Shown here piece by piece: positions 1 through 47,851 of a DNA stretch of 64,000 nt. Both the position numbers and the translations under genes were made by a program. The notes below the pieces were generated by a model, which made no database searches, was not told the origin of the DNA, and saw nothing but the letters and a program-made list of their open reading frames with translations. Origin of the DNA: Spirochaetota bacterium. Lineage in GTDB: Bacteria > Spirochaetota > UBA12135 > COTS27 > CAXSBA01. Within the stretch, counting starts at the first letter, position 1; every line of letters begins with the position of its first letter. Location: positions 1,917,078 through 1,981,077 of the forward strand of contig OZ245054.1 in NCBI GenBank assembly GCA_965224715.1. The letters are read 5' to 3'.

Positions 1-565
1 AAATCAGTCGGGGGTTATTGATGAAGGCTCTAACAATTGCCACCCTCTGAGCCTCACCACCAGAAAGTTCTCCGACATAATGATCTAGACGATTACTTAA
101 TCCTATTTTATTTAATAACTCCATCGCCAATTTTTCTTTTTCGTCTTTTATTCTGACAAAGTGAGGTCGAATCATCGCTGGAACAAGAATATTTTCTAAT
201 ACCGTCAATTCCTTGATCAGATTATGTTGTTGAAAGACGAAACCGATAAATTTTGAACGAAGGATAGCTAGCTGGGTTTCTGAAAGATGGTTAAAGCAGT
301 AATTGAAAAAAAAAACCCTACCCTCAGTGGGACTATCAATACCAGCCAAAAGATTGAGAAGGGTAGATTTCCCGGAACCACTGGCACCGGTAATAGCTAT
401 GGTTTCTCCTGCTTCTACCTGAAAATCAACCCGTTTCAAAACCGAAATTTTTCGATCATGAATAGAAAAAATTTTCTTCACTCCTATTACCCGTAACAAG
501 GGGTTAAGGGGAGACAGGGGAAAATCCTCTTTAAAAATATTAAACTTTTCTAAAAATCTATTCAT
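1..565 (-). CDS. lolD: ABC transporter ATP-binding protein, LolD-like; the C-terminus runs off the window start
   Basis: Absent from the ORF track because it is truncated. Reverse-strand translation from the ATG at 565-563 reads MNRFLEKF.... It has Walker A GASGSGKST (approx 360-390) and the ABC signature LSGGE (53-67). Its start overlaps the stop of the upstream permease gene by 8 nt. Confidence 0.85.
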   Translation of the reverse strand, partial: MNRFLEKFNIFKEDFPLSPLNPLLRVIGVKKIFSIHDRKISVLKRVDFQVEAGETIAITGASGSGKSTLLNLLAGIDSPTEGRVFFFNYCFNHLSETQLAILRSKFIGFVFQQHNLIKELTVLENILVPAMIRPHFVRIKDEKEKLAMELLNKIGLSNRLDHYVGELSGGEAQRVAIVRAFINNPRLI

Positions 566-1874
566 AACGCATAATATCGACTGGTTTTAATCGTGCTGCC
601 TTAAGTGAAGGGAAGAATCCAACGATAGCAGACAGTACTATAGCCATAGAAATAAAAAATAAAACTCGAGATATACTAACATCACTGGGAATAAAATCTA
701 GATAGTAAACTCCCTTGGGAAAAATCTCAAACCCTTGATATGTTCCCATATCAACAAACCAAGAAGCCATAGAATAAAAAATTAAATTAGCTATACTGAT
801 AATATATTCAATTCCTTGAATAACCAACATAACATCCAAAGAGATAAGATAACCCAAAGTTCCTCCAATGATTGATCCCATCGCAGTTATTACAAATCCT
901 TGAAATAAGAATATTTGGGCCACCTGTAAAGGACGCATACCTATAGTTTTCAATATACCGATTTCTTTTTTTTTCTCTATAATAAAAATAAGTTGAGAAC
1001 TGGTAACATTGAAAATGGCCACTATCAAGATCAAGGTAACGATGAAGTTCATAAGGCTCCTTTCTAAAGCCAGAGCTTTAAAAAAATTATAATTGATATC
1101 CTGCCAAGTGAAAAAACGATAACGGTCACCATAGAGTGTTATTAGCACTTCTAATACTGGCTCTAGATTCCAAATATTTTCTACCTTGATGTCAATTTTT
1201 CTTACTACATTCTTCTGGCGAAATACTTTTTCAAATGTAGACAGTGAGACATAAACTATTCCTTCATCAAATTGTTGTAATCCTGTTTTGAAAGTCCCCA
1301 TAATTTTAGTTTCTACTGAACGAGGGCGGCTACTCATAGTGAGATTCTCTTCATCTGTGACCAAAAGATTAATCCTTTCACCTGAATCTACCAAACGTTT
1401 TGCTGCTAATTCACTACCAATCAAAATCTGGTAGCGACGATCAACTGTTTTCTTTCCATCAATTATCTTTACCAATTGATCTAGTTCCGTATCATTTTTG
1501 AAATAGTCAGGTGGCACCCCTCGAATCAGTACTGGCTCAAAACCAGAGAAAAATTGGGCCATTCCCTGCACTTCAATATAAGGATTTGCGGAAACTACCC
1601 CTGGAATAGCTCGAATCTTTTTCATTACTTCTTTATAGTTTTTAATATTTTTTTCTAAGTAGGTACTTGAAATAACTATATGTCCCTTCACTCCCAAAAT
1701 CTTGGTTTTGATTTCCTCTTGGAATCCCATCATGACTGACAAAACCACAATCGGAACCATAACCCCTAGAGTCACTCCCATCAAAGAAATCAAAGATACA
1801 GTAGATGCAATGGATTGACGGGCTCGTTTACGTCCAGCCAAAAACCGGAGAGCTATGAGAAACTGTGCTTTCAT
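558..1874 (-). CDS. lolC: Lipoprotein-releasing system permease, LolC/LolE (FtsX/MacB-type) family
   Basis: 438 aa. The N-terminus MKAQFLIALRFLAGRKRARQS plus a TM, a large periplasmic loop and a C-terminal FtsX-like 3-TM bundle are typical of LolC/E. It is translationally coupled to the LolD-like ATPase. Confidence 0.8.
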   Translation of the reverse strand: MKAQFLIALRFLAGRKRARQSIASTVSLISLMGVTLGVMVPIVVLSVMMGFQEEIKTKILGVKGHIVISSTYLEKNIKNYKEVMKKIRAIPGVVSANPYIEVQGMAQFFSGFEPVLIRGVPPDYFKNDTELDQLVKIIDGKKTVDRRYQILIGSELAAKRLVDSGERINLLVTDEENLTMSSRPRSVETKIMGTFKTGLQQFDEGIVYVSLSTFEKVFRQKNVVRKIDIKVENIWNLEPVLEVLITLYGDRYRFFTWQDINYNFFKALALERSLMNFIVTLILIVAIFNVTSSQLIFIIEKKKEIGILKTIGMRPLQVAQIFLFQGFVITAMGSIIGGTLGYLISLDVMLVIQGIEYIISIANLIFYSMASWFVDMGTYQGFEIFPKGVYYLDFIPSDVSISRVLFFISMAIVLSAIVGFFPSLKAARLKPVDIMRYE

Positions 1875-1879
1875 AATAT

Positions 1880-4800
1880 CTATTTTTTTCGTTTCTTACG
1901 ATTTAAAAGTAACTGAACTTCATAGAGTTCCAAATCAAGATGTTTAGCAATTTCCTTATCTGACCACCCGATATGACTCAGAGTTTTAGGAAGGGATTTG
2001 AACTTCTTATCTAGTTCCGTAAACAGTGCACTATCATTTTCTCTTTGATTTTGAAAAATTTTCAAAATAATACTAATTTGCTCATTGAATCCTTCCTTGA
2101 GAAGATTAAGGTTATCCTGTTCTACCAACATTTCCTTTTTAAGTGTCCTGATAACTTCAATTCTTTTTTCTAAATCATAAACTGCAATATCAAAGTTATC
2201 GAATTTCTTATTTAAGTATTCCAACGCTTTATAACGTTCATCTAAACTAAGTGACTTTTGCTCCAGGGATTTGATGTTATCGGTGACCTTTTTCTGTAAT
2301 TCTTCACCTGCCGCAACTCGTCCCAAGAAAATATCCGTCTTTTCTTGGTTCTGTTGAGACTGACTTTGAATATCTTTCACCCATTTCTTAACATCATAAA
2401 AATCACCTTGAAGCTCTTTTAAGTTACCGAATTCTTTCTTGATAGCATTGATATCTTGATTATAGTCCTGAAGTTTAGATAAAAATCTATCTATTTCACT
2501 AGACTGCGATTTAACAGTATTTATATGACCTTCAATCTCCCCCGTCATATTCATAATAGTCTCTAATTGCTGAGCTAAATTCAGAACATTAGACTCCTTC
2601 TCTTTCAAATTCTTGTGGATTACTTGTAAATGTTGATGTTCCTTCTCCAATTTTTGGAAATTCTCTTGAAAGTCAGCAAAACGTTTCTCAGTTTTTTTCA
2701 ATTGACTCAACTGTTTCTCATAATTTGCCATTACACTAGTAAATTCTTTTTGGAATATAAATATCTTATCTACTGACTTAGTTTTACTGAGAAAAAAGTC
2801 TATTCTATCAGTTACCGAGGCTATTTTTTTCTCCATACCCATAACCATTTCATTGAAGGTGTCCTGAAAAGATTGTTCTTTGTCAGCTAAATTCAATTTA
2901 ATCCCTTCTACCAAGTATTCAATCCTATCCTCACCTTGTACTAACAGTTTATCCAAAAATTTTTTCTGCTTTACTACTTCTTCTGAAAGTTTTTTCCAAT
3001 TTTTATCAATACCTTCAATTCCTTTACGATAATTCTTTATTTCTTCTTGGAGCTCCCGACGAAAAAACTCTTTACTAAAATTTCTTTTCAACTCATTAAA
3101 TATTTTTTCGGTTTTAAGTTTACTGATTAAATTGATCCGTACCTGCTCTTTTAAGAAAGTTTGCCAACCAGAATCCCTTTGTAACCGTTCTACTATCCAA
3201 CTACTATTAATACTAACAGAGTTTTTGATTTTATTGGTTAAATATCGATCAAGTTCAAAAAGAAAATTCTTATGTTTCGAAGACATATCACTCTTTGAAG
3301 TAATAGAAAAAATTTCTTGAAGTAATCGTGGCAACTCATTGGACATTACCTTATAAAGACGATCCTCAATATAATCGTTGATATTTTCTCTAATCAACCT
3401 CCTTTTCTTTTGGATATCACTAAGGTCAGCCTGAAGTTTAACCAAATCACTCTTAACCTTTTCAAAGCTGTTGTTTAAAGTCTCCTGACTATTATCGATA
3501 ATCCCAGCTTGTTTTTTCTTCTGCTTTTCTAAAAACCCAGAAAGATTATTGATCTGATAAGTAATAGTTTTCTTAGACTCATCCATAAAGGATTGAAGAG
3601 AATCCAAAGCTTCCTCTTTAAGACGATTACGAGCTTCAAGCTTATTCGCTTGCTCTTCAATTTGAAAAAAACTCTTTTCGAACTGCCCTACTATCTCCTG
3701 CTGGTACTCTTCCCCTTTCTGCTTAACTTCAAATAATACTTCTTCTGAAAATCGCTCCACCTGCTCTCGAATCTTCTCTTGATCCTCTACTACCTTCTTC
3801 TCCCAATCTTCATATTTCCCCAGCAAACTGATAAACTTATCTTCATATCCTTGAAAATTAGCTTGAAAATCAATCAATTCCTTTTCCGTACTACTCTTCA
3901 ACTCCTCCAATATCCCCTGCTGATACTCTTCTCCTTTCTGCTTAACTTCAAATAATACTTCTTCTGAAAATCGCTCCACCTGCTCTCGAATCTTCTCTTG
4001 ATCCTCTACTACCTTCTTCTCCCAATCTTCATATTTCCCCAACAAACCGGAAAACTTATCTTCATATTCTTGAAAATTAGCTTGAAAACCTACCGATTCC
4101 TTTTCTGAATTGTTCTTCAAAATTATCAAATTTTTTTGTAAACGATCTTCCTCTCTAGCTACCACATCATCCACCATCTTTCTAAATTTCTCCTCCCAAG
4201 CAGTATATTCTTTTCCCAATTTCTTGCTATCCAAATTATCCAATAATTTAAGTCGAGACTGCTCATCCAAAAATGACTGCCAACTTGAATCTCCTTTCAA
4301 ATAATCCATCAACCAACTTAAATTACTCTCAATCGATTCCCTAAACTGACTATTAAAAAAATCTCTTAAATCCCGATACCATAAACCAGATTCCGTTTCA
4401 GTTACTTTTGCTCCACTCAATACCTCCAATAAAACCCGAGGAACTTCCTCCATCATCATCTGATTCAATTTCATATCCAAACTGTCACTTAACTCAAATA
4501 AAATATTATTACGGTTCTGCTTAATACTTTCAACCTCCTCTTTTATCAAATCAAAGTCAGAACGAACATCTTTATAAATATCAACCAAAACTAAATGGTT
4601 TTTTTGATAAAGGCTACTTTGCATTTCTTTCTGCTTTTCTAAAAACCCAGAAAGATTATTGATCTGATAAGTAATAGTTTTCTTAGACTCATCCATAAAG
4701 GATTGAAGAGAATCCAAAGCTTCCTCTTTAAGACGATTACGAGCTTCAAGCTTATTCGCTTGCTCTTCAATTTGAAAAAAACTCTTTTCGAACTGCCCTA

Positions 4801-7800
4801 CTATCTCCTGCTGGTACTCTTCCCCTTTCTGCTTAACTTCAAATAATACTTCTTCTGAAAATCGCTCCACCTGCTCTCGAATCTTCTCTTGATCCTCTAC
4901 TACCTTCTTCTCCCAATCTTCATATTTCCCCAGCAAACTGATAAACTTATCTTCATATCCTTGAAAATTAGCTTGAAAATCAATCAATTCCTTTTCCGTA
5001 CTACTCTTCAACTCCTCCAATATCCCCTGCTGATACTCTTCTCCTTTCTGCTTAACTTCAAATAATACTTCTTCTGAAAATCGCTCCACCTGCTCTCGAA
5101 TCTTCTCTTGATCCTCTACTACCTTCTTCTCCCAATCTTCATATTTCCCCAACAAACCGGAAAACTTATCTTCATATTCTTGAAAATTAGCTTGAAAACC
5201 TACCGATTCCTTTTCTGAATTGTTCTTCAAAATTATCAAATTTTTTTGTAAACGATCTTCCTCTCTAGCTACCACATCATCCACCATCTTTCTAAATTTC
5301 TCCTCCCAAGCAGTATATTCTTTTCCCAATTTCTTGCTATCCAAATTATCCAATAATTTAAGTCGAGACTGCTCATCCAAAAATGACTGCCAACTTGAAT
5401 CTCCTTTCAAATAATCCATCAACCAACTTAAATTACTCTCAATCGATTCCCTAAACTGACTATTAAAAAAATCTCTTAAATCCCGATACCATAAACCAGA
5501 TTCCGTTTCAGTTACTTTTGCTCCACTCAATACCTCCAATAAAACCCGAGGAACTTCCTCCATCATCATCTGATTCAATTTCATATCCAAACTGTCACTT
5601 AACTCAAATAAAATATTATTACGGTTCTGCTTAATACTTTCAACCTCCTCTTTTATCAAATCAAAGTCAGAACGAACATCTTTATAAATATCAACCAAAA
5701 CTAAATGGTTTTTTTGATAAAGGCTACTTTGCATTTCTTTCTGCTTTTCTAAAAACCCAGAAAGATTATTGATCTGATAAGTAATAGTTTTCTTAGACTC
5801 ATCCATAAAGGATTGAAGAGAATCCAAAGCTTCCTCTTTAAGACGATTACGAGCTTCAAGCTTATTCGCTTGCTCTTCAATTTGAAAAAAACTCTTTTCG
5901 AACTGCCCTACTATCTCCTGCTGGTACTCTTCCCCTTTCTGCTTAACTTCAAATAATACTTCTTCTGAAAATCGCTCCACCTGCTCTCGAATCTTCTCTT
6001 GATCCTCTACTACCTTCTTCTCCCAATCTTCATATTTCCCCAGCAAACTGATAAACTTATCTTCATATCCTTGAAAATTAGCTTGAAAATCAATCAATTC
6101 CTTTTCCGTACTACTCTTCAACTCCTCCAATATCCCCTGCTGATACTCTTCTCCTTTCTGCTTAACTTCAAATAATACTTCTTCTGAAAATCGCTCCACC
6201 TGCTCTCGAATCTTCTCTTGATCCTCTACTACCTTCTTCTCCCAATCTTCATATTTCCCCAACAAACCGGAAAACTTATCTTCATATTCTTGAAAATTAG
6301 CTTGAAAACCTACCGATTCCTTTTCTGAATTGTTCTTCAAAATTATCAAATTTTTTTGTAAACGATCTTCCTCTCTAGCTACCACATCATCCACCATCTT
6401 TCTAAATTTCTCCTCCCAAGCAGTATATTCTTTTCCCAATTTCTTGCTATCCAAATTATCCAATAATTTAAGTCGAGACTGCTCATCCAAAAATGACTGC
6501 CAACTTGAATCTCCTTTCAAATAATCCATCAACCAACTTAAATTACTCTCAATCGATTCCCTAAACTGACTATTAAAAAAATCTCTTAAATCCCGATACC
6601 ATAAACCAGATTCCGTTTCAGTTACTTTTGCTCCACTCAATACCTCCAATAAAACCCGAGGAACTTCCTCCATCATCATCTGATTCAATTTCATATCCAA
6701 ACTGTCACTTAACTCAAATAAAATATTATTACGGTTCTGCTTAATACTTTCAACCTCCTCTTTTATCAAATCAAAGTCAGAACGAACATCTTTATAAATA
6801 TCAACCAAAACTAAATGGTTTTTTTGATAAAGGCTACTTTGCATTTCTTTCTGCTTTTCTAAAAACCCAGAAAGATTATTGATCTGATAAGTAATAGTTT
6901 TCTTAGACTCATCCATAAAGGATTGAAGAGAATCTAAAGTTTCCTCTTTAAGACGATTACGAGCTTCAAGCTCTGTAGTCTCATTATTCAGTTTTTTATA
7001 TCTATCTTCTAAAAGACTGAGAACTTCTTCTTGATAGTCATTTATCTTTTCTTTAAAGCCAGAAAGAATCGTTGCAGAGAATTTATCAATACGTTTTTGA
7101 GTCATATCTTGGTGTTCCGCAACTTCCTTCTCCCATGTTCCATAACGATCCATTAAAGTAGCAACCTGACTCTCACGCTGACTTAAATTCTCTTGTAGAA
7201 CTTGAATTTCGGTTTCAAAATTAGAACGCATCCTCTCTATCTCATTTTGCAGATGTTCCCTCTCTTCTTTTACCAAAATATCTATGCTATCTTTGAAATC
7301 AGCTTCCAAATCAGCATATTGTTGTTTAAGCTTATCGGTATTGATCTTGCTTAGATTGATAACTTGCTCATAACCTTGGTTAATATTTTTTTCAACCTCA
7401 TTTAGACGTTTGCTAAAAGCTGATTCCAAATTCAAAATTTCTTTAGAATAACTTTCTTTGAAATCATTAAGAGAATTTTCTATCTGTTTAACCGATTCTT
7501 CTTTATTTCTAAAGTCACTTTCAACCGCATTGAGCTTAGCTATAAAATCTTGTAATTTTAAGTTATTATCCTTAAAGGTATCCTGCAGTTCTCTATAAAA
7601 ATCCGATGTTTTTTCTAAATCTCGAGAAAGTCGAGTCACTTCTGAAAGCCGTTCTTCGACGGTTTTAAATGAAGTCTCAATACCATCACGAAGACGATTG
7701 AAATGAATAAAGTCATGCTGAAGATTTATATTAACCTCCCGAAATTCCCTAAGATTACTCCGAAACTTTTCGATAAAATCCTTTTCCCGAACATTCATAT

Positions 7801-7918
7801 ATTCATTAATTTTTTCAATACGAAAATTTGAAATTTTAGAACGTATATATGAAAAGAAAAATATTAAAAAGATAAAGCTATTACCAATCAAAATGAGAAG
7901 AATTTCAGTAGCCGACAT
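1880..7918 (-). CDS. Giant (2,012 aa) coiled-coil protein with an N-terminal TM anchor, internal 370-aa tandem repeats and a short basic HTH-like C-terminal tail; function unknown
   Basis: Single uninterrupted ORF. Residues 1-28 are hydrophobic (ILLILIGNSFIFLIFFFSYI). The rest is E/K/Q/L-rich with heptad-like character. The stop lies 5 nt upstream of the lolC start. Confidence 0.8.
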   Translation of the reverse strand: MSATEILLILIGNSFIFLIFFFSYIRSKISNFRIEKINEYMNVREKDFIEKFRSNLREFREVNINLQHDFIHFNRLRDGIETSFKTVEERLSEVTRLSRDLEKTSDFYRELQDTFKDNNLKLQDFIAKLNAVESDFRNKEESVKQIENSLNDFKESYSKEILNLESAFSKRLNEVEKNINQGYEQVINLSKINTDKLKQQYADLEADFKDSIDILVKEEREHLQNEIERMRSNFETEIQVLQENLSQRESQVATLMDRYGTWEKEVAEHQDMTQKRIDKFSATILSGFKEKINDYQEEVLSLLEDRYKKLNNETTELEARNRLKEETLDSLQSFMDESKKTITYQINNLSGFLEKQKEMQSSLYQKNHLVLVDIYKDVRSDFDLIKEEVESIKQNRNNILFELSDSLDMKLNQMMMEEVPRVLLEVLSGAKVTETESGLWYRDLRDFFNSQFRESIESNLSWLMDYLKGDSSWQSFLDEQSRLKLLDNLDSKKLGKEYTAWEEKFRKMVDDVVAREEDRLQKNLIILKNNSEKESVGFQANFQEYEDKFSGLLGKYEDWEKKVVEDQEKIREQVERFSEEVLFEVKQKGEEYQQGILEELKSSTEKELIDFQANFQGYEDKFISLLGKYEDWEKKVVEDQEKIREQVERFSEEVLFEVKQKGEEYQQEIVGQFEKSFFQIEEQANKLEARNRLKEEALDSLQSFMDESKKTITYQINNLSGFLEKQKEMQSSLYQKNHLVLVDIYKDVRSDFDLIKEEVESIKQNRNNILFELSDSLDMKLNQMMMEEVPRVLLEVLSGAKVTETESGLWYRDLRDFFNSQFRESIESNLSWLMDYLKGDSSWQSFLDEQSRLKLLDNLDSKKLGKEYTAWEEKFRKMVDDVVAREEDRLQKNLIILKNNSEKESVGFQANFQEYEDKFSGLLGKYEDWEKKVVEDQEKIREQVERFSEEVLFEVKQKGEEYQQGILEELKSSTEKELIDFQANFQGYEDKFISLLGKYEDWEKKVVEDQEKIREQVERFSEEVLFEVKQKGEEYQQEIVGQFEKSFFQIEEQANKLEARNRLKEEALDSLQSFMDESKKTITYQINNLSGFLEKQKEMQSSLYQKNHLVLVDIYKDVRSDFDLIKEEVESIKQNRNNILFELSDSLDMKLNQMMMEEVPRVLLEVLSGAKVTETESGLWYRDLRDFFNSQFRESIESNLSWLMDYLKGDSSWQSFLDEQSRLKLLDNLDSKKLGKEYTAWEEKFRKMVDDVVAREEDRLQKNLIILKNNSEKESVGFQANFQEYEDKFSGLLGKYEDWEKKVVEDQEKIREQVERFSEEVLFEVKQKGEEYQQGILEELKSSTEKELIDFQANFQGYEDKFISLLGKYEDWEKKVVEDQEKIREQVERFSEEVLFEVKQKGEEYQQEIVGQFEKSFFQIEEQANKLEARNRLKEEALDSLQSFMDESKKTITYQINNLSGFLEKQKKKQAGIIDNSQETLNNSFEKVKSDLVKLQADLSDIQKKRRLIRENINDYIEDRLYKVMSNELPRLLQEIFSITSKSDMSSKHKNFLFELDRYLTNKIKNSVSINSSWIVERLQRDSGWQTFLKEQVRINLISKLKTEKIFNELKRNFSKEFFRRELQEEIKNYRKGIEGIDKNWKKLSEEVVKQKKFLDKLLVQGEDRIEYLVEGIKLNLADKEQSFQDTFNEMVMGMEKKIASVTDRIDFFLSKTKSVDKIFIFQKEFTSVMANYEKQLSQLKKTEKRFADFQENFQKLEKEHQHLQVIHKNLKEKESNVLNLAQQLETIMNMTGEIEGHINTVKSQSSEIDRFLSKLQDYNQDINAIKKEFGNLKELQGDFYDVKKWVKDIQSQSQQNQEKTDIFLGRVAAGEELQKKVTDNIKSLEQKSLSLDERYKALEYLNKKFDNFDIAVYDLEKRIEVIRTLKKEMLVEQDNLNLLKEGFNEQISIILKIFQNQRENDSALFTELDKKFKSLPKTLSHIGWSDKEIAKHLDLELYEVQLLLNRKKRKK
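3519..6972. repeat. Tandem repeat, period 1,110 bp, about 3.1 copies, inside the giant CDS; each unit carries a nested 219-bp (73-aa) duplication
   Basis: Positions 3521.. , 4631.. , 5741.. and 6851.. all read ctgcttttctaaaaacccag. The identical antisense ORFs at 4110, 5220 and 6330 confirm the 1,110 period. The only differences I found are 6935 and 6940 in the edge copy (c to t). The nested repeat is seen as cctgctggtactct at 3697 versus cctgctgatactct at 3916. Confidence 0.9.
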
Positions 7919-8129
7919 AATTCGTGTAAATTCTCTATTGCTTATATATTTTACAATAAGGAAGATAGTCTCCTATAAGATTAAATCCATAATAATCAAT
8001 AAAACCCAAAATCATTCCAACAATTTGAAAAAAACACTCCAAAAACATGAATACCCCAGAAAAAAACTAAAGGTACCAAATAATTTTAGGAGTAATTGGA
8101 AAGGCTATATTATTTTTTAAAAGAGATTT

Positions 8130-10652
8130 TTAATTAGTTTCAGATTTTTTCTTGAAAGGGGTTTTACTATACGATATTTTATTCTTTTCAATAGTGAAGT
8201 TGATAACATCACCTAGCTTGGCTTTCCTTGATATAATCTCATCGGAAAGATAATCTGTGATATGGGTTTGAATCAATCTTCTTAAAGGACGAGCACCAAA
8301 TTTTTTATAGTCAGCATATTTGATAATAAAATTCTTTACTTTATTATCGATATTAACCACAATTTTTTTTTCTTTAAGAAGGTCTTGAAGATCATTCATC
8401 TGTAGATCAATAATTTCATTAAGCATTTTTTCATTAAGTCTTTCAAACACGATAGTTTCATCTAAACGATTGATAAATTCTGGAGAAAAGTTTTTCTTGA
8501 GCTCATCCAAAGTAGTCTGTTTTAATGCCTCATAGCCTTCTTGACTGAGACCTCCTTTCTTAAATCCGATAGGGACATTGTTATTAATCTCTTTACTTCC
8601 TAAATTAGATGTCATAACTATGACCGCATTGCTAAAGTCGACCTTATTTCCAAGATGATCTGAGAGTTTACCATCTTCAAGAATTTGTAAAAAAATATTA
8701 AAAATATCAGGATGAGCCTTCTCAATTTCGTCAAAGAGAATAACAGAATAAGGACGCTGACGAATCAAAGTTGTAAGCTCACCCCCTTCTTGATAACCCA
8801 CATATCCAGGAGGTGATCCAATCAACCTCGAAACTGTATGTTTTTCCATAAACTCTGACATATCTATTTTAATAAGAGCATCACGAGTACCAAAAACAAA
8901 TTCAGTGAGACACTTAACCAACTCCGATTTTCCAACTCCAGTCGGTCCCAAAAACATATAAGAAGCCATAGGACGACCTGGCAACTTTAGTCCAGCCCGG
9001 GAACGGCGATAAGCCTTAGCCAAAGCAGAAATAGCATTCTTCTGTCCCACAATTTTTTTACCTAAGTCCTCCTCCATAGAAAGAAGGCGATGAGACTCTT
9101 CTTTCTCTAATTTATTGACTGGAATTTGAGTCATATTCTTTACTACCAATCCAATATCTTCAACCGTAATCTCGATCTTCTTAGTTTTCTTTTCCTCCTC
9201 CCACTCACCAAGCATCTTTTCTAATTCACTTTTTTTCTTCTTAACCCGATCCCGGAGGAGAGCTGCTTTTTCATAATCTTGCTCCTTGACTACTTCCTTT
9301 TTTTCTTTAGTTAGTTTCTCTATTTCCGTCAACATTTTTTTAGCAAAACTAGGAAGATTAGAGTTACTTAATCTCACTTTGGCACCTGCTTCATCAATAA
9401 GGTCAATAGCTGAATCAGGAAGATATTTGCCCCCAAAATAACGTTTGGCATAATGAACTGCAGCGTTAATAGTTTCATGAGGATAAAGTACATTATGAAA
9501 ATTCTCATAACGATGCTTAAGTCCAATAAGGATATTTATCGCATTCCCTAGAGAAGGCTCTTCAACATTAATTTTTTGGAAACGACGTGAAAGTGCAGAG
9601 TCTCTTTCAACATACTTGCGGTATTCGGAAGAGGTTGTAGCTCCGATACATTGGAGTTCAGCTCGGCTCAGGGCTGGCTTCATAATATTGGAAGCATCCA
9701 TACTGCCTTCTGCACCTCCAGTCCCAATGATGGTATGGACTTCATCAATAAACAAAATAATATTCTTATTTTTCTTTATTTCTGACATGATACTCTTGAT
9801 CCTCTCTTCAAACTCTCCACGATATTTAGTTCCTGAAATACAAGCAGCTAAATCCAAACTTACGACCCTTTTTTCCAAAAGAAGGTCCGGAACATCTCGG
9901 GCAACAATTTTATTGGCCAATCCCTCCACAATTGCTGACTTACCTACTCCGGGCTCCCCAACCAAGATGGGATTATTTTTGCTTCGTCGAGAGAGAATTT
10001 GAATAAGACGATCTATCTCCTTATCTCTCTCAATCACTGGATCTAACATTCCATTCACAGCTAATTCTGTAAGATCACGAGAAAAGCTGTTGAGAGTAGG
10101 CGTAGAACCGCGGTTTGATTTTTTTTCTTTGTATTCCTTGGGTTCATTAAGCACATTTTCTTTGAAATTTGTACTTTGATTATCAAAACCAAGAATCTCT
10201 ACTATAGTTTTTTTTAAATCATTTAAAGTAATATCATATTCATTAAGATAATGAGACACCATTCCATCATTTTCCCGATAGATTCCTAAGAAAAGATGCT
10301 CCACTCCAATATAATAATGGTTAAGAGCTTGAGACTCCTCTGAACTATAACGAAGAACCTTCTCAATTCTTTCAGAAGGTTGGATCTCTCCCAATTTTAA
10401 AACAGGAGTCCCCACCTTAAGCCGATTTTCAATCTGATAGATGATTTTTTCTACATTAACCCCTAAATCCTCTAAGACTTTAAAAGGAATACCTTTACGT
10501 TCTCTAAGGATGCTCAAGAAAATATGCTCAGGCTCTACATATTCTGAGCCGAATTTACGTGCCTCTTCCTGCGCTAAACGATTAATAATCCTTTGCGCTC
10601 GGGCAGTCAGTCCGCTACGATTATTCATGGGATTAGCTTCTTTTTCGCTCAT
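8130..10652 (-). CDS. clpC: ATP-dependent Clp protease ATP-binding subunit, ClpC type (class I AAA+)
   Basis: 840 aa. It has two Clp_N repeats, two AAA+ modules (GEPGVGKS and GPTGVGKS Walker A), a UVR-like linker (EQDYEKAALLRDRV) and an IGF ClpP-docking loop (VPIGFKKG). Confidence 0.9.
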   Translation of the reverse strand: MSEKEANPMNNRSGLTARAQRIINRLAQEEARKFGSEYVEPEHIFLSILRERKGIPFKVLEDLGVNVEKIIYQIENRLKVGTPVLKLGEIQPSERIEKVLRYSSEESQALNHYYIGVEHLFLGIYRENDGMVSHYLNEYDITLNDLKKTIVEILGFDNQSTNFKENVLNEPKEYKEKKSNRGSTPTLNSFSRDLTELAVNGMLDPVIERDKEIDRLIQILSRRSKNNPILVGEPGVGKSAIVEGLANKIVARDVPDLLLEKRVVSLDLAACISGTKYRGEFEERIKSIMSEIKKNKNIILFIDEVHTIIGTGGAEGSMDASNIMKPALSRAELQCIGATTSSEYRKYVERDSALSRRFQKINVEEPSLGNAINILIGLKHRYENFHNVLYPHETINAAVHYAKRYFGGKYLPDSAIDLIDEAGAKVRLSNSNLPSFAKKMLTEIEKLTKEKKEVVKEQDYEKAALLRDRVKKKKSELEKMLGEWEEEKKTKKIEITVEDIGLVVKNMTQIPVNKLEKEESHRLLSMEEDLGKKIVGQKNAISALAKAYRRSRAGLKLPGRPMASYMFLGPTGVGKSELVKCLTEFVFGTRDALIKIDMSEFMEKHTVSRLIGSPPGYVGYQEGGELTTLIRQRPYSVILFDEIEKAHPDIFNIFLQILEDGKLSDHLGNKVDFSNAVIVMTSNLGSKEINNNVPIGFKKGGLSQEGYEALKQTTLDELKKNFSPEFINRLDETIVFERLNEKMLNEIIDLQMNDLQDLLKEKKIVVNIDNKVKNFIIKYADYKKFGARPLRRLIQTHITDYLSDEIISRKAKLGDVINFTIEKNKISYSKTPFKKKSETN

Positions 10653-12486: not shown

Positions 12487-13398
12487 ATGGCTCAGATTAT
12501 CGATGGACGTGCTCTCAGTAAACAAATACTATCGGAATTGACCAACCAGGTAAATTCTCTTCAATCTCAAGGTAGTCCCATACCAGGATTAGTTACCATC
12601 TTGGTAGGAGAACATCCTGCTTCAAAGTCCTATGTAACCTTAAAAAGCCGGATAGCACAAAAAATCGGTTATTTTCAGATTCAAAAAAATTTACCAATCA
12701 CTGTAACTGAAAAACAACTTATTTCAGAAATTATTCGATATAATCAAGATGACCGCATTCATGGCATTCTAGTTCAGCTTCCTCTACCTAGCCATATCAA
12801 TACTCATAAGATATCGACTATGATTACTCCCCAGAAAGATGTGGATTGTTTTCATCCACATAATCAGGGAGAATTTTTTTCTCAATATCAAGACAATCAA
12901 TTAGTAGCCTGTACTCCAGCTGGAATTATGGAGATATTGAAACGTTCTCAAATACCTACCTCGGGAAAACATGTAGTTATCTTAGGAAGATCTAACCTGG
13001 TTGGAAAGCCAATGTTGATTATGATGTTGGAAAAACATTTTGGTGGAAATGCTGCAGTCACTGCTATTCACTCCGAGGTAAAAGATCTTTCCTATTTTAC
13101 ACAACAAGCCGAAATTTTAATCGTTGCTGTTGGCCGCCCCAAACTTATCACCGCCAAAATGGTTAAAAAGGGAGTTACTGTGATTGATGTTGGAGTAAAT
13201 CGAATTGGAGAAAAAATTAATAGTCAAGGAAAGACAACTCCAATATTATGTGGTGATGTCGACTTTGATGGTATCAAAAATAAGGCTAGTTTCATTACCC
13301 CAGTTCCTGGAGGGGTAGGTCCTATGACCATCGCTATGTTAATGAAAAATACTTGGACAGCTTTTAACAAAATTCATAAGATCAGTCTATCAAACTAA
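12487..13398 (+). CDS. folD: Bifunctional methylenetetrahydrofolate dehydrogenase / methenyl-THF cyclohydrolase
   Basis: 303 aa. MAQIIDGRALS..., VGEHPASKSYV, ILVQLPLP, GRSNLVGKP and TPVPGGVGPMT are canonical FolD motifs. Confidence 0.95.
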   Translation: MAQIIDGRALSKQILSELTNQVNSLQSQGSPIPGLVTILVGEHPASKSYVTLKSRIAQKIGYFQIQKNLPITVTEKQLISEIIRYNQDDRIHGILVQLPLPSHINTHKISTMITPQKDVDCFHPHNQGEFFSQYQDNQLVACTPAGIMEILKRSQIPTSGKHVVILGRSNLVGKPMLIMMLEKHFGGNAAVTAIHSEVKDLSYFTQQAEILIVAVGRPKLITAKMVKKGVTVIDVGVNRIGEKINSQGKTTPILCGDVDFDGIKNKASFITPVPGGVGPMTIAMLMKNTWTAFNKIHKISLSN

Positions 13399-15129
13399 TG
13401 GAATATCTTTAGATATCCCCCTCCTTATAGAAAATTGTGAAATAACATCTTTATCCAATGAATAACTTACAATCTTAGGCAAAACTGGGTCCCTTTTTAG
13501 AACAAATCCCTTAAAAACATTATATTTAAAAAACTGTTTAATATTGTTAATCTGAACAGTTACCCCGCTGTAAACCCCTCCAAAAGTTTTAATTTCATTT
13601 TGATCTAAGTTACTAGCCTTATCTTGAAGCATTATCTCCTTAAGCTCATTTACTTTTATTTCTATTTCTCTCTTATTATTTTGGAGATCTTTAAAGTTAA
13701 AAATTTTTTGTTTAAATTCGATAATTTCATTATCACTAAAAGATTTAGGATTAGTTTTCCAACGTTTAAAAGCACTTTCTACAAGAGGCCTTACTTTTTG
13801 AAGCTTCTGTTCTAATAAAAAAAGTTTATTAGAGTATTCTTCTATAATAACTTTATCACTTTTTGCTTGCTCATTTGCTATAACATGTTTTCCAACTTTA
13901 AGAAAGGTATCGGTCCCAGATATTGATCCAATACTATTGGTTTCAATATAACCTTCTTTTGACTGCACAGAACCCCCAACTATTTCGCCATAATGATTAG
14001 TTCTTACTATAATATTTTTTCGAGCATTAATATCACTATTCAAAGTATACTGTCCAACCCACAAATTTCCCCCCACACTTATCTGAGAATTCGCAACAAA
14101 TTGAACAAAACAGTCACCCCCAACTTTGATCACACTTCTACTATTAATCCCATTGGTTAAAAAAAAATCACCTTCACAATCAATGTTTACTGTTTCTACA
14201 CCTCCTAAAACCACTAAACTTCCTTTTACCTTGATTTCTACATTGGTGAAAATTCTTCCGGTAATAATAACATCTTGGTCTCTTTCAATATTCAGATCGG
14301 TCTTCAAATCTCGATTGATGACCAGACCTTCCTTCACCACCAACTCCCCCCCTTTATTGATACGAAGAATACCATTTTGTAAAACAACGATCTCCCCATT
14401 AGAATCTTCTAGTAAACCCTCACCTTTTTTATAAAAAGCAATGATCCGAGTACAAGGGATTTCTTTACCAAAAACATCCATTCCCTTACTACCTGGAATA
14501 GTTTTCTTGAAGGTACCAACTTTATCTCCCTTATTTACAATATGATAAAACTCAATTTCCTTAGGAGAAAGTACTCGCCTTCCTTCTAACAAAGTAAAGT
14601 TATTTTCGAAATTAAAGTAATCATCAAGAAGAATATCGTTTTCTCGATCAGGAATCATCTTGGATCCTTGATAAAGGATCTTATATCCCCCTGATTTATT
14701 ATGGATTCTAACGCATTCCTTAGCAATTTCTTGGCTAACTATATCTCTAATACCAAAATCATCTATATCTTTATTAACATGCTTTTCTGTTAATGGATTC
14801 TTGGTAAAATCTTGAGCAGGAATAATAATAAAACATATTAATTCTATATCGTTAACAGAAATATAAGGAAGAACTTTGATTTTAGATTCATCAAAATAAA
14901 TAAATCCAGTTTTACGAGCAATATAACACTTCTTACTTTTTAGAAAAAAAACCGTGTCATCAACTACGTATTCCTTATCAGTTTGAAGGACCGGTACACC
15001 TTCCAAAACAAAATTCTTAGAGATTTCTTCTAAGTCAGTATAATTAACTCGACCAAATGAGATTTTATTATAAATCGCTATAATCCCAGGCTCATAAGGA
15101 TAAAAAAAATTCTCTGTCTTCCTTTCCAT
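13390..15129 (-). CDS. DUF342 / FapA-like protein (beta-helix core plus C-terminal coiled coil)
   Basis: 579 aa. The central region has repetitive short beta-strand motifs (VKGSLVVLGGVETVNIDCEGDFFL, VGGDCFVQF, VGGNLWVG). It is followed by a helical K/E-rich tail, matching the DUF342 architecture as I recall it. No search was run. Confidence 0.5.
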   Translation of the reverse strand: MERKTENFFYPYEPGIIAIYNKISFGRVNYTDLEEISKNFVLEGVPVLQTDKEYVVDDTVFFLKSKKCYIARKTGFIYFDESKIKVLPYISVNDIELICFIIIPAQDFTKNPLTEKHVNKDIDDFGIRDIVSQEIAKECVRIHNKSGGYKILYQGSKMIPDRENDILLDDYFNFENNFTLLEGRRVLSPKEIEFYHIVNKGDKVGTFKKTIPGSKGMDVFGKEIPCTRIIAFYKKGEGLLEDSNGEIVVLQNGILRINKGGELVVKEGLVINRDLKTDLNIERDQDVIITGRIFTNVEIKVKGSLVVLGGVETVNIDCEGDFFLTNGINSRSVIKVGGDCFVQFVANSQISVGGNLWVGQYTLNSDINARKNIIVRTNHYGEIVGGSVQSKEGYIETNSIGSISGTDTFLKVGKHVIANEQAKSDKVIIEEYSNKLFLLEQKLQKVRPLVESAFKRWKTNPKSFSDNEIIEFKQKIFNFKDLQNNKREIEIKVNELKEIMLQDKASNLDQNEIKTFGGVYSGVTVQINNIKQFFKYNVFKGFVLKRDPVLPKIVSYSLDKDVISQFSIRRGISKDIPLV

Positions 15130-15983: not shown

Positions 15984-16883
15984 TTAGAATTTCCTTTCAC
16001 CAGAATTAGTACTGTAAAACAACTGAAAATCAATAGTAGTGTCACGCACTGAATTGATGATAAGCCGTGCATAGGTATTATTCGATAGGTTTTTCAAGGC
16101 ATAGCTATGTTTCGATACTACCACAAAGTAATTATTAGCTTGGCTATTAACATAATCGTCAACAGGCAGTATAGTGCTTCCTGAAACATAACCTAAAGGA
16201 TTTATCCCAACATTACCTTGAGCCATCATCACATCATGTTGTTCGCTAGTGATATTAGTAGCAAAAACAAAAACTAGAGAGTCACTCATAGAAGTATTAC
16301 TAGAAACTTCCCATTTATCATTATTGATCACTAAGGCCTGATTTTCTTTGATTGTTCCATTGACAATAATAGGAATATGAAGGGCATGAGACGTAGCTAT
16401 TTTTGAGTAAAGCCATCCATTGTTATCATAGAGTCGACCATAACTTTCATTATATCCATAAGCTATAGCAGTAAAATCATAAGTTTTAAGAGATTGAAAG
16501 TTGTTTAAATTGATCGTCACAGTAATCGCATTCAAATAGCTACCCGAAACAGAGGGTTTATCACTGGTTTGGAGGTAATTAGGAATTTCATTAACAGTAG
16601 TAAAATCTCCCATCGTAGCATTATCAATATCAGATTGAAAGTCTGTCCCTGGAGAGCCAAAAAGGAGGACATAATAATCAAAATCCTCATGAGAAGGGAA
16701 ATACATGCCCGAATTGATTGTCATTACCACCCCACTTTCAGTAATCGATAGATCACTGATTTTAGGAGGAGGGTAGCTATAAACTTGAACTGTGCTCTTG
16801 ACATCATAAACGGAACATCCAAACAAACCCCACCAAACCACCAGGGTCCATAAGACAAGTGACCAAACAAGTTGAAACATCAA
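15984..16883 (-). CDS. Hypothetical lipoprotein, distant paralogue of the neighbouring gene
   Basis: 299 aa. It has a signal peptide ending in a lipobox-like LFGC. I recognise no domain. Confidence 0.6.
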   Translation of the reverse strand: MMFQLVWSLVLWTLVVWWGLFGCSVYDVKSTVQVYSYPPPKISDLSITESGVVMTINSGMYFPSHEDFDYYVLLFGSPGTDFQSDIDNATMGDFTTVNEIPNYLQTSDKPSVSGSYLNAITVTINLNNFQSLKTYDFTAIAYGYNESYGRLYDNNGWLYSKIATSHALHIPIIVNGTIKENQALVINNDKWEVSSNTSMSDSLVFVFATNITSEQHDVMMAQGNVGINPLGYVSGSTILPVDDYVNSQANNYFVVVSKHSYALKNLSNNTYARLIINSVRDTTIDFQLFYSTNSGERKF

Positions 16884-16911: not shown

Positions 16912-17817
16912 CTATTTACCTATCCGAGATACACCACCAACAAAGTCAGATAAAATTTCTTTTTTATGACCATAGCTGACAGTAATCTTCTTTTCGTCTA
17001 TTTCTGTCACCCACAAAGCCAGATACTCATCTACTGACGCAGCATTATTCCTAGCTCTCAAAAAATAGATATGGTTACGATAGGGTTTATAAGGCTTATC
17101 ATTATAGGAAAGATCATTTTCAGGGATAGTCTGATAAATTGAGTTAACTGCTCCACCTGGGGCTATGGCGAAAATATAGGAATCATGCTGAGGAAAAATA
17201 AAATAATCCTCTTCTACCATAAGGTCAGCAAAAACATCGACACCAGGACCATTCAGGGTGTTACTGTAATCCCAAGATATGTCATGCTTATAATTAACAA
17301 AAATTGTTTTAATTGCATCGGTACGTCTCCCTGTTCGACTTGTCTCAACCGCTTCAACTACAAAATAATACTTTTCATAATTCATCAAGGGTTTAGAATA
17401 GAAAGATTCGCGATCCATCCCATCCGGAATATCATCGCTAGTTGCATGTTGACTAAATCGAAACCTAATATCGGTCAATGGAATGGTGACATTAGTAGTG
17501 GATTCATTTAAACTAACCTCATAGCTAGGAAGTTCATTGTCAGAACTGATAAACATAATCCTGTCAATCACTTGATCAACATTATTGTTATCACCTACAT
17601 AGATATTATATCCTATAAAATCTGGATACTCATCAGCAGGATAAAATCCCACAATCTCCAAATACAAGGCATCATCCCGATTGTAAACCTCAAGTTCCGG
17701 CTTATTCAAGTTGTTTATATTTACCCCTGTCGAACTGGGCAACCCACAACCATATAAAATAAATCCAATTAAAATAAACCAGAAATTCCAAAGACATGTC
17801 TTCGTTATCATATACAA
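16912..17817 (-). CDS. Hypothetical lipoprotein, distant paralogue of the neighbouring gene
   Basis: 301 aa. It has a signal peptide ending in a lipobox-like LYGC, and the same size and layout as 15984-16883. Confidence 0.6.
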   Translation of the reverse strand: MYMITKTCLWNFWFILIGFILYGCGLPSSTGVNINNLNKPELEVYNRDDALYLEIVGFYPADEYPDFIGYNIYVGDNNNVDQVIDRIMFISSDNELPSYEVSLNESTTNVTIPLTDIRFRFSQHATSDDIPDGMDRESFYSKPLMNYEKYYFVVEAVETSRTGRRTDAIKTIFVNYKHDISWDYSNTLNGPGVDVFADLMVEEDYFIFPQHDSYIFAIAPGGAVNSIYQTIPENDLSYNDKPYKPYRNHIYFLRARNNAASVDEYLALWVTEIDEKKITVSYGHKKEILSDFVGGVSRIGK

Positions 17818-17830: not shown

Positions 17831-18835
17831 TTAAATAACTACCGTGAGAAGGCGTTCAAATTGAAGTCTAGCTTTTAGAGGAATTCGGGGTCTGTCGACA
17901 TTCATACTAATAAAACTATCCTGCCTAAGCCCTTTATCAATCCGAAAACATTCTTCCAATATTCGAGAAATTTCGGAATAAGTGAAGAAAACATCTTTAG
18001 CTTGAAGAGATTTTTTATGCTTATCGTATATGACTCTTAACTCCTGAAATATTTTATTTAAAGGCTTCTTTTCGAATTTCATCTCCTTAAATTTTACTAT
18101 TAAAATCAACTCTCGAATCATCACCGTAATCAAGAGAGGAAGCTCCCCTTGATTAAAAAGATATTGACGAAACTTTAGTAATGTTTCAGGAATTTTCTTC
18201 TCAAAAAACTGGTTAACTACACCATATGCCATCTGCTCAATTTGGTCAAGCGAAATAATCCCTTCCAGTGAAATTAGGGTTATCAACTGGCCAGGACTAA
18301 AATAGGCAGCTATCTTCTCCAATTCATTATCCATGGAAGCCGGATTTTCAGAAAAAATTTTAACTAAGCGATTTTGAACTTCACGACCCATTTTAAGTTC
18401 CTGTTCTCGCAAAAAATTTTTAAGATGATTCCTAACCCCATCCCATTTAACAAAGTATTCGTTGATTACTTCCGCATCAGATAAAGCAGAAAACTTTTTC
18501 TTTTCTCCCTCTGTTAAGAAAATGTTACTTACCAGAACTACCCAAGTATTATCAGGAATGAGAGGTATAATCTTACGAAGTTGAGAGAAAGAAAAAAAAT
18601 TTTGATAATGCCAAACAACTACTAATTGACGACTACATCCCAGAGGCAATGAAAAAAGGGTTTCAAGCACTTCTTCTTTCTTGCTACTTTCTCCCCCACT
18701 CTCATAGCTACGGAATTGAGTAACCGCCATTTCTTTTTCTAACTCGGGAATATGATTGCTAATGATGGAAGTAATCCTCTTCTTGGCAGTCAAGTCACTC
18801 TTACCATGAAAAATTGTTATTCGTTTCATGATCAT
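17831..18835 (-). CDS. holA: DNA polymerase III delta subunit (HolA-like)
   Basis: 334 aa and helical. It sits immediately downstream of, and overlaps by 4 nt, an LptE-like lipoprotein gene, as in the conserved lptE-holA arrangement. The call rests on size and synteny more than on motifs. Confidence 0.6.
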   Translation of the reverse strand: MIMKRITIFHGKSDLTAKKRITSIISNHIPELEKEMAVTQFRSYESGGESSKKEEVLETLFSLPLGCSRQLVVVWHYQNFFSFSQLRKIIPLIPDNTWVVLVSNIFLTEGEKKKFSALSDAEVINEYFVKWDGVRNHLKNFLREQELKMGREVQNRLVKIFSENPASMDNELEKIAAYFSPGQLITLISLEGIISLDQIEQMAYGVVNQFFEKKIPETLLKFRQYLFNQGELPLLITVMIRELILIVKFKEMKFEKKPLNKIFQELRVIYDKHKKSLQAKDVFFTYSEISRILEECFRIDKGLRQDSFISMNVDRPRIPLKARLQFERLLTVVI

Positions 18836-19434
18836 TTTATTATCTGATTTTTGGTAGGAAGTTTTCCATTGAGCATAAGTTCATGAACCGTAACAGCAAC
18901 TTTATCGATGGCCAAATTTTCAATATATTCTTCCGTTAAGGAACTGTCACCTATCTCTACATAATCAAGTACTTCCACCACTAAAGGATAGCCTTTATAA
19001 TAATATCGACCTAATTGTTCATTATTCTTTGATTGATTGATATATTTAGAGTCACTGACAAAAAGCTTGGATTGAATTATGATTTCTCGATTTCCAAAAC
19101 CATAGTCGTTGACATCCTTAGCCTGATAATTATGAATATGAATCAAAACATAAAGATCACTGTTATCGACATCTTCTACTATCCCAAATCGAGTTTGGGA
19201 AGAAAAAAAATCTTTAAGTCTAGCTCTAACTTGTTCATCTAAAAGATAGCGATCAGTATAATTTACAGGAGGGGCAATGTAAACAGTTTTTTTTTTAGGA
19301 GAAATGAAATAGATTTGTCTAGCTACGGTTTTGCCCAAACAACCATAAAAACTAACAGTTAAAGTTAAAGATAAAGTTAAAACTATAACCAAATAACCGA
19401 TAAAAAACCTACCTTTTATTTGGCTAGTCCGCAT
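18832..19434 (-). CDS. lptE: LPS-assembly lipoprotein LptE-like
   Basis: 200 aa with lipobox FYGC. Its position directly upstream of holA matches the proteobacterial lptE-holA synteny. Confidence 0.5.
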   Translation of the reverse strand: MRTSQIKGRFFIGYLVIVLTLSLTLTVSFYGCLGKTVARQIYFISPKKKTVYIAPPVNYTDRYLLDEQVRARLKDFFSSQTRFGIVEDVDNSDLYVLIHIHNYQAKDVNDYGFGNREIIIQSKLFVSDSKYINQSKNNEQLGRYYYKGYPLVVEVLDYVEIGDSSLTEEYIENLAIDKVAVTVHELMLNGKLPTKNQIIK

Positions 19435-41111: not shown

Positions 41112-41149
41112 TGATCTATTCTAGCCTTACTGATCTATTCTAGCCTTAC
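41112..41149. repeat. Perfect 19-bp tandem duplication (TGATCTATTCTAGCCTTAC x2) in a 399-bp divergent intergenic region
   Basis: Read directly: 41112-41130 equals 41131-41149. Confidence 0.9.
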
Positions 41150-47045: not shown

Positions 47046-47120
47046 CTAGGAGGACTCTTTTAAATTATTTAATTTTAATATTGAGATACTTGTAATTATG
47101 TTATAATTATTATTCACTGT

Positions 47121-47203: not shown

Positions 47204-47213
47204 AATCTATTGG

Positions 47214-47289: not shown

Positions 47290-47373
<84 letters not shown>

Positions 47374-47399
47374 AATAAAATTACTAAAATCGTTTATTT

Positions 47400-47851
47400 T
47401 TCTTGAAAAAAAGTCAAGAGAAAATGTTTATTGGACAAATATTGGACAAAGGTTCTCTAAAATCAGGTTATCAGAATTTATCAGATTTCTAAACTTGTTG
47501 GACAACAAAGACAGGAAAATTCTTTTTTATTGTGAAGCCTCACATAAGGAGGATACTCTTGATGCTATAGGAATTGAGCAGAAGGTATCAGGGAAGACCT
47601 ATTCTAATGAAGGAAAAGTAAAAGACTTAGAAATTTTAGGCGCAGGGTTTAAGGGTGAAATTGGAAAATATAAATTGCTTAACTCGGATAAAAAATGGAT
47701 AAAAGATATTTATGATAAAAATATAATGGGTGAGAATGTAGATATATCAAAGTTTTATTCTATGGATTATGGAGTTAGAAAACATCATAAAGAAGAATTT
47801 ATCCGTAATATTGTTAGTAGTTCAGCAGTACCGAATAAAAAAACGACTTGA
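47400..47851 (+). pseudogene. ORF fragment without a credible start, probably the 5'-truncated remnant of a phage gene
   Basis: The track ORF 47333-47851 begins inside tRNA-Leu. Downstream of the tRNA, the only in-frame ATG codons lie near the 3' end. An AAGGAGGA at about 47553 is not followed by an in-frame start. Confidence 0.35.

Follow-up and report, generated by a model that had tools for sequence, protein, structure and literature searches.

A divergent SpiroCoCo-type protein with identical kilobase-scale in-frame repeats is a candidate membrane-anchored spacer in a spirochaete

A 64,000-nucleotide stretch of DNA from a Spirochaetota bacterium (contig OZ245054.1, positions 1,917,078 to 1,981,077; hereafter the window, with positions counted from its first letter) was analysed, and the focus was on a gene for a protein of 2,012 amino acids (aa) whose rod contains 370-aa tandem repeats. 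The protein was found to be a divergent relative of the SpiroCoCo family. It probably acts in the cytoplasm as a spacer or tether that is anchored in the membrane, varies in length and presents a SwrB-like helix-turn-helix (HTH) head, a role that we infer and a function that is predicted. In the proposed mechanism, a short N-out end and one transmembrane (TM) helix would anchor the protein in the inner membrane, a long and mostly helical rod would follow, and the conserved tail of ~310 aa would be presented by this tether to a cytoplasmic partner. The family pattern points to a spacer or tether: both ends are conserved, the rod between them is unconserved and variable in length, and it has been duplicated in frame repeatedly. 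A sequence-only reading of this DNA had suggested a length-variable, membrane-anchored filament or ruler. The spacer or ruler part of that suggestion fits the conserved ends, the unconserved rod and the duplications that four of seven members carry on their own, whereas the filament part found no support.

The repeats were examined by base-by-base self-comparison at an offset of 1,110. The periodicity was perfect over 3519-6934 (3,416 bp, 3.08 copies, 0 mismatches), in agreement with the exact 1,110-bp period and 3.1 copies described earlier. Between 6934 and the end of similarity at 6972, the sole differences were substitutions at 6935 and 6940, the same two that had been noticed in the edge copy. 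No comparable long repeat was found elsewhere in the 64-kb window, and the list of open reading frames (ORFs) holds no other ORF of at least 80 aa overlapping the gene. The 219-bp (73-aa) duplication said to be nested in each unit was recovered by Tandem Repeats Finder (TRF; period 219, 1.9 copies, 93%), and the two copies per unit were 90-93% identical by TRF and repeat search. Over their first ~57 codons, the 73-aa copies differ at 6 codons (3 synonymous and 3 non-synonymous), and their last ~16 codons are diverged. The reading frame is unbroken over every repeat junction, and the earlier view that a change of copy number keeps the frame is supported. The diverged copies reported to flank the identical block are real; they lie in register at a 370-aa offset and are overall 26-32% identical to the unit. 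In blastp against the unit, the N-flank copy (aa 189-307, offset 370 aa) reached 29-30% identity (E 3e-14 and 3.5e-11) and the C-flank copy (aa 1470-1609) 26% (E 1.6e-14), or 31% (E 5e-22) when the relatives' fragments were used instead.

Close relatives of the gene were found in two Logan samples, SRR14371676 (~95-96% nucleotide identity) and SRR14371711 (~92%). In each sample the gene is spread over a pair of contigs, and the four ends at which these break off all lie at repeat borders. The N-side contigs from the two samples stop at the same window position, 6943. Counted from the last unique base (6973), this is exactly 30 nt into the repeat, where a Logan de Bruijn assembly with k=31 is expected to stop on entering a repeat. 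The C-side contigs begin at positions equivalent to 3587 and 3578. Because the old copies are just ~30% identical in protein, a single-copy locus would not break at these borders. Both relatives therefore also carry two or more nearly identical units, and their N-side junction is the same. In comparison with these two relatives, the unique parts of the gene gave dN/dS (the ratio of non-synonymous to synonymous divergence) values of 0.10-0.16 with dS of 0.16-0.37, and clpC and lolC gave dN/dS values of 0.04-0.06. By this comparison it is a real gene under purifying selection, which evolves faster than its clpC and lolC neighbours.

Within the perfectly periodic block, no differences were found among the window's units on exact alignment, though flanking dS between strains is 0.16-0.37; the synonymous divergence between units that would have spoken against the earlier reading was thus absent. 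If the junction is ancestral, as the shared boundary suggests, units that were not homogenised should differ at dozens of sites, and none do. For this reason ongoing homogenisation is preferred over a single very recent expansion, and the data suggest an ancestral duplication whose units have been homogenised by recombination. The two private substitutions fit this, because edge copies are homogenised least. Of the earlier proposal of an old repeat family with a very recent expansion or ongoing conversion, the old family with a homogenised or recently expanded block stands, whereas a single very recent expansion became less likely with the shared junction and the dS between strains.

An assembly or polishing artefact, in which the true number of units differs or slightly different units were made alike by consensus polishing, appears very unlikely. 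Short reads cannot resolve identical 1.1-kb tandem units, the short-read assemblies of the relatives break there, and the full gene has been seen in one assembly only. However, the 2,112,975-bp contig that carries it implies a finished or long-read assembly, the frame is intact over all junctions, the edge copy has private substitutions next to clean junctions, and the relatives independently show a repeat at the same borders.

Under homogenisation by recombination, one of the old 370-aa modules of which the rod is built would have been duplicated in tandem and in frame, and homologous recombination would hold its copies identical, whether through unequal crossing-over, through gene conversion or through cycles of contraction and expansion. 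Rod length would then shift in steps of 370 aa through copy number while anchor and tail remain untouched, and a 73-aa step through the nested repeat might also occur. With a rise of ~0.15 nm per residue, one 370-aa step would add at most ~55 nm if the rod is extended. Searches of phage and plasmid sequences by tblastn gave no match and no sign of a mobile-element origin. Even if the flagellar link discussed below fails, the locus would stand as a clean case of kb-scale in-frame repeats that evolve in concert within a cytoplasmic protein.

The family relationship rests on the tail. The C-terminal 314 aa aligned end to end with the NCBIfam profile NF047515.1 SpiroCoCo_C (positions 6-313 of its 313; E 3.7e-19), but their score of 69 bits does not reach the curated cut-off of 125. 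The window protein is, by sequence, a divergent SpiroCoCo relative and not an equivalog. In an exhaustive phmmer search with the C-terminal 1,199 aa as query against 1.84 billion representative proteins, 10 proteins were matched, all aligned through the tail, which was the sole region with homologues; the same exhaustive search found no homologue of the 370-aa unit outside the window protein. The proteins found in this way all match SpiroCoCo_C, and one of 8 relatives reaches the cut-off (P0021, 125.2 bits). The window locus shows that the family extends below that cut-off, a point that does not depend on the flagellar link. The full-length relatives are 1,114, 1,250, 1,615, 1,637 and 1,716 aa long, to which a 1,906-aa protein from a Spirochaetota bacterium metagenome-assembled genome (MAG; contig L005, CBDBHE010000002.1) is added. 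The family thus ranges from 1,114 to 2,012 aa (1.8-fold), and the window protein is the longest found. The relatives have in common an N-terminus without K/R, one TM helix followed by a basic juxtamembrane stretch, an unconserved rod, and a conserved tail that ends LH.IGWS..EIA.HL....YEV...L. Four of the seven full-length members carry recent rod duplications of their own, which are mutually unrelated (Table 1); the repeats of the MAG protein, for example, have no sequence relation to the window unit. Compared with SpiroCoCo members, the window protein shares the significant full-profile tail alignment, the N-terminal TM helix, the long helical rod and the IGWS..EIA.HL....YEV end. It differs in its sub-cut-off score, an unrelated rod sequence, the greatest length, identical units of kb scale, and a linkage to lolCD in its own clade.

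The only match with an organism name lies in a Spirochaetota MAG, and a 283-aa flagellin gene lies near the locus in related contigs. This uncharacterised family is probably confined to spirochaetes, and its helical rod proteins are predicted to be anchored in the membrane and to face the cytoplasm. A literature search found no papers on SpiroCoCo, DUF6115 or PF19610, and nothing on the SpiroCoCo family was found in the literature on spirochaete coiled coils and FlhF/FlhG. In a Pfam scan of the full 2,012-aa protein, no family scored above its cut-off. A protein-database homology search with the full protein, the C-terminal 544 aa or the tail profile returned just the protein itself, nothing, or one fragment, its word index apparently being swamped by low-complexity coiled coil. 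Scans of genome contigs and metagenome contigs with the full protein gave nothing; the tail profile found one MAG in the genome contigs and nothing in the JGI metagenomes. Among PDB sequences, neither the unit nor the C-terminus nor the tail profile found anything beyond noise or designed coiled coils. The database entry for the protein (P0001) carries the Pfam accession PF27594.1, which was absent from the local Pfam scan and is not listed for the other members looked up.

The membrane anchor was then considered. No K/R stands before the TM helix, and R26, K28, R33 and K36 follow it (four within 12 residues). This positive-inside pattern is consistent in 7 of 7 full-length family members and is the basis for a predicted N-out/C-in topology, with the bulk of the protein in the cytoplasm. 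The family N-termini are 16-20% identical in a MAFFT alignment and have the common pattern K.G I.K...F....E.E...K. Within 7799-7918 (minus strand), the TM helix is missing from the database model (P0001, 1,972 aa) and from the gene called in the relative L004, because both begin at M41. The longer start is backed by conservation of residues 1-40 in both relatives, an in-frame stop just upstream and the family-wide anchor. A deposited gene model without the membrane anchor would mislead localisation predictions.

Long near-identical in-frame tandem repeats in a coiled-coil protein are typical of surface antigens such as the streptococcal M or Alp proteins, and an exported or surface repeat antigen, with a repeat number that varies under immune or phage pressure, was therefore weighed. 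This explanation is scarcely credible: the 2,012-aa protein has no signal-peptide n-region (and no basic n-region), lipobox or sorting signal, the positive-inside pattern runs through all seven members, and the HTH-like tail and SwrB-type architecture point to the cytoplasm, the topology of SwrB having been shown experimentally (10.1101/2021.04.30.442225).

The structure of the rod was assessed by modelling and by a crude heptad test. One unit, predicted from its single sequence by AlphaFold2 (AF2), was all helix with low confidence (predicted local distance difference test, pLDDT, 64), with breaks and a poorly predicted Trp-rich middle stretch; this model was kept out of the fold search. In the heptad test, 45% of residues lay above the 95th percentile of shuffles, against 4% for a shuffled sequence, and the dips coincide with the Trp-rich, low-confidence, non-heptad segment of the unit. 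The rod is thus modelled as helical with coiled-coil segments, not as a uniform coiled coil. The earlier description of one N-terminal TM helix and ~1,950 aa of coiled coil was right about the single anchor and the long helical rod but overstated the coiled coil, with ~45% of residues being heptad-like; the remaining factual statements of that reading were all borne out. No SMC_N or ATPase match was obtained for SMC/Rad50 ATPase heads, and matches of the coiled-coil region were weak (37 bits against a cut-off of 567).

The window protein has 24 Trp, against 1-9 in its relatives, and the motif SW....L..DS.WQ.FL.EQ.R..L is retained between the units and the 26-31% identical old C-flank copy (aa 1470-1609). 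Together with the non-heptad character of the Trp-rich segment, this would suit a multivalent scaffold, in which each 370-aa unit is a binding module with the Trp-rich segment as its site, and amplification raises valency and not length. We consider such a scaffold unlikely. The unit has no homologue beyond the window protein among the 1.84 billion representatives, and other members duplicate quite different rod segments, which argues for length or bulk over a specific site.

The tail was modelled as ending in a small HTH-like three-helix motif, in which W1985, I1990, L1994 and E2000 are invariant in the family alignment. For the last 134 aa, AF2 with an 8-sequence alignment gave a pLDDT of 83 and one long helix followed by four short helices in a small bundle; the short helices of the terminal motif scored 71-85. 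The top Foldseek matches in the PDB were uniformly HTH (sigma region 4, NarL/DosR, resolvase and Spo0J) over 33-37 residues at 1.0-1.6 Å, with E >0.1, which is not significant. When the tails of nine family members were compared with Pfam, DUF6115 (PF19610) was the most frequent family (6 of 9); the relatives scored 27.3, 27.0, 24.2, 21 and 17.5 bits, and the gathering score is 27. When the comparison was confined to the last ~50 aa, which are free of coiled coil, DUF6115 still came first (5 of 9, best E 1.3e-4) and the remaining families were HTH. The earlier statement that no family could be recognised is superseded, since the tail aligns to SpiroCoCo_C and the terminal motif of the relatives matches DUF6115.

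DUF6115 includes the flagellar protein SwrB as judged here by score. The Bacillus subtilis SwrB sequence used was checked at its length (167 aa) and at five residues, H13, L48, F51, L53 and L155, all of which agree with the preprint (10.1101/2021.04.30.442225). This SwrB sequence scored 27.0 bits against DUF6115, aligned with the family motif in hhalign at E 0.0014, and was the first non-family match of a hidden Markov model (HMM) of the tail motif among 814 decoy ORFs (E 0.013). SwrB is a monotopic protein, N-out/C-in by experiment, that activates flagellar type III secretion, and its L155P mutation causes loss of function (10.1101/2021.04.30.442225). In the alignment, SwrB L155 falls on L2003 of the window protein. 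In both proteins, a short N-out end (by prediction in the window protein) and a single TM helix are followed by a cytoplasmic helical region, and a G(W/Y)S..(E/Q)IA......E(V/I).LLL motif stands at the C-terminus; SwrB, however, is encoded in the fla/che operon, whereas the window protein is 12 times longer and lies outside a flagellar operon. DUF6115 proteins are about 130-190 aa long, and the 2,012-aa product of a gene between clpC and lolC does not belong to the small, flagellar-operon DUF6115/SwrB type.

A more remote likeness was seen to FipA (DUF2802), the FlhF-binding polar landmark of gamma-proteobacteria, in which G110 and L129 are required for FlhF binding (PMC11620751). The layouts are alike, with ~5 periplasmic residues, a TM helix, a coiled region and a small conserved C-terminal domain in both, and by inspection G110/E126/L129 of FipA share a G-x15-E-x2-L spacing with G1984/E2000/L2003 of the window protein. 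In the family, the E is invariant, the G is present in 8 of 9 members, and the +19 position is L/I/V in 8 of 9. On the other hand, FipA has 163 aa and is encoded beside flhFG, whereas the window protein has no flhF or flhG neighbours. DUF2802 was not among the 15 families matched by the nine SpiroCoCo tails, and the SwrB sequence used matched DUF2802 weakly (E 0.017), which leaves the FipA link two steps removed. The NCBIfam matches to collar_FlbB (E 0.037) and HmpF were discounted as coiled-coil noise.

The HTH-like motif also raises the idea of a nucleoid or DNA tether, in which the terminal HTH binds DNA and the protein thereby ties the inner membrane to the chromosome, or to one particular locus, across a long and adjustable distance. 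Weak Pfam and NCBIfam matches to HTH_23, HTH_19, HTH_37, GerE and sigma70-ECF, the DNA-binding HTH domains (including Spo0J/ParB) at the top of the Foldseek matches, and a basic extreme C-terminus (NRKKRKK) are in its favour. However, every HTH match is sub-threshold, in the best match DUF6115/SwrB and the look-alike FipA a domain of this kind serves protein contacts or is not known to act on DNA, the basic end is not conserved in relatives, and no par/smc-type genes are neighbours. Such a DNA-binding function is improbable.

For a spacer or tether with a SwrB-like head, the cytoplasmic partner may be a flagellar assembly component, either FlhF or the flagellar export gate, judging from the tail motif, which resembles DUF6115/SwrB and, at a greater remove, FipA. 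This partner is speculative, and we regard it as doubtful. Several points weigh against the spacer reading and its proposed head. The SpiroCoCo_C score lies below the curated cut-off, and the copy number and 100% identity of the units rest on a single assembly. The topology is predicted, the unit model has low confidence (pLDDT 64), and the Foldseek matches were not significant. The relatives' DUF6115 matches are at or below the gathering score, the window tail itself gave no match to DUF6115 (E up to 10) or DUF2802, and the hhalign probability against SwrB was just 17%. Moreover, no flagellar operon surrounds any family member examined.

Proteins that set a length or vary in repeat number include Lpp, the spacer of periplasm width, the FliK/YscP rulers, and the streptococcal M and Alp repeat proteins. 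As in these, in-frame tandem duplication would make an elongated helical protein longer or shorter and leave its end domains as they are. Those proteins are periplasmic, secreted or surface-exposed, whereas the window protein is predicted to be cytoplasmic and membrane-anchored. Spirochaetes build a fixed number of flagellar motors at a defined sub-polar site, and, to our knowledge, no FipA, HubP or SwrB-like landmark has been described in them. A probably spirochaete-specific family that joins a SwrB-like head to a very long rod, re-sized time and again, would be a concrete candidate for this motor placement. In the most far-reaching version, which we hold to be a long shot, SpiroCoCo proteins would be giant spirochaete counterparts of SwrB/FipA-type monotopic factors and act as a recombination-adjustable ruler for organelle placement. 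If so, a rod of up to hundreds of nm would separate the membrane anchor from a head that binds FlhF or the export gate, and repeat recombination would tune rod length and thereby set the site or spacing of periplasmic-flagellum motors near the cell pole. Natural variants in repeat number would then supply a built-in length series.

Table 1. Features of the rod gene and its neighbours in the window, and rod duplications in family members
Feature	Position	Strand	Basis
Whole gene, divergent SpiroCoCo-type protein, 2,012 aa (TM anchor, helical rod, conserved tail)	1880..7918	-	ORF and translation
N-terminal TM helix, aa 6-24, ILLILIGNSFIFLIFFFSY	7847..7903	-	translation; same layout in 7/7 aligned full-length members
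Conserved N-terminal region with basic juxtamembrane stretch, aa 25 to about 100	7619..7846	-	MAFFT N-terminus alignment
Old diverged copy of 73-aa-type module, N-flank, aa 189-307, in register	6998..7354	-	blastp
Repeat unit 1, the edge copy with both substitutions (6935, 6940)	5863..6972	-	self-comparison
Repeat unit 2, 100% identical to unit 3	4753..5862	-	self-comparison
Repeat unit 3	3643..4752	-	self-comparison
Nested 219-bp (73-aa) duplication in unit 3; counterparts at 4791-5230 and 5901-6340	3681..4120	-	TRF, repeat search, codon comparison
Partial fourth copy, 124 bp, 100% identical to unit start; junction with old diverged copy	3519..3642	-	self-comparison
Old diverged copy of the unit's first half, C-flank, aa 1470-1609	3092..3511	-	blastp
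SpiroCoCo_C-like conserved tail domain, aa 1692-2005	1904..2845	-	NF047515.1 profile, phmmer, alignment
Terminal HTH-like motif, aa 1976-2006, TLSHIGWSDKEIAKHLDLELYEVQLLLNR	1901..1993	-	alignment, AF2, Foldseek, Pfam of relatives
LolC/E-like permease, downstream, 5 nt after rod-gene stop (1880; start 1874)	558..1874	-	Pfam MacB_PCD and FtsX
ClpC-type AAA+ ATPase, upstream, 211-bp spacer	8130..10652	-	Clp_N, AAA, UVR, AAA_2 and ClpB_D2-small domains
Rod duplication, window protein: 370 aa x 3.1; alone with kb-scale 100% identical units			
Rod duplications, MAG protein: 98 aa x ~4 (294 bp x 3.8, 96% identity) and a 237-aa duplication 516 aa away	L005 6903-8017 (gene 4694-10414)	+	
Rod duplications, P0020: 47 aa x 3.5 and 29 aa x 2	aa 642-805 and aa 967-1044		
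Rod duplication, P0018: 71 aa x 2	aa 496-695		

The coordinates bear out the earlier placement of the gene between clpC and lolC, 5 nt from the lolC start. The LolC/E-like gene matched TIGR02212 with E 1.2e-85, below the cut-off. The same adjacency of rod gene and lolC is present in three related contigs (L001, L003 and L006), so the linkage is conserved in the near clade. Contig L006 (JGI 3300040954) carries a family fragment at 25-2458 whose tail is 42% identical, a 438-aa LolC/E-like gene 6 nt later, and then a gene cut by the contig end, which would be LolD by its position. Since this linkage persists despite 42% tail identity, the tight association with lolCD is older than the window's species group. 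In another clade, the family gene lies beside epimerase, amidohydrolase and ruvAC genes. No flhF or flhG was adjacent in the window or in contigs L005, L007, L008 and L009. A scan for promoters and terminators found no more sites than in shuffles and was uninformative on co-transcription. In the relatives' contigs L001 and L003, the flagellin gene (283 aa) lies beyond lolCD. About 5 kb from the rod gene, at 13390-15129 (minus strand), a 579-aa ORF is collinear with a 578-aa FapA-family (PF03961) gene of contig L002; the window copy, scanned against NCBIfam alone, gave a weak MinC-like match. Among the part of the ORFs scanned, it is the sole flagellum- or division-related gene identified near the locus in the window.

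Other features of the window were also recorded. Two adjacent genes of ~300 aa at 15984-16883 and 16912-17817 (minus strand) have no Pfam or NCBIfam match and are not detectably paralogous; both products start with a hydrophobic stretch that closes with L(F/Y)GC, which resembles a lipobox, and may be lipoproteins. An ORF of 200 aa at 18832-19434 has no assigned family. A cluster of tRNA-Tyr, tRNA-Gly and tRNA-Leu lies at 47120-47374 (plus strand), and the ORF 47333..47851 starts inside tRNA-Leu, its start probably being spurious. At 41112-41150, a perfect 19-bp tandem repeat of 2.1 copies, TGATCTATTCTAGCCTTAC, is located in the spacer between the divergent genes 39861-41018 (minus strand) and 41418-42710 (plus strand).

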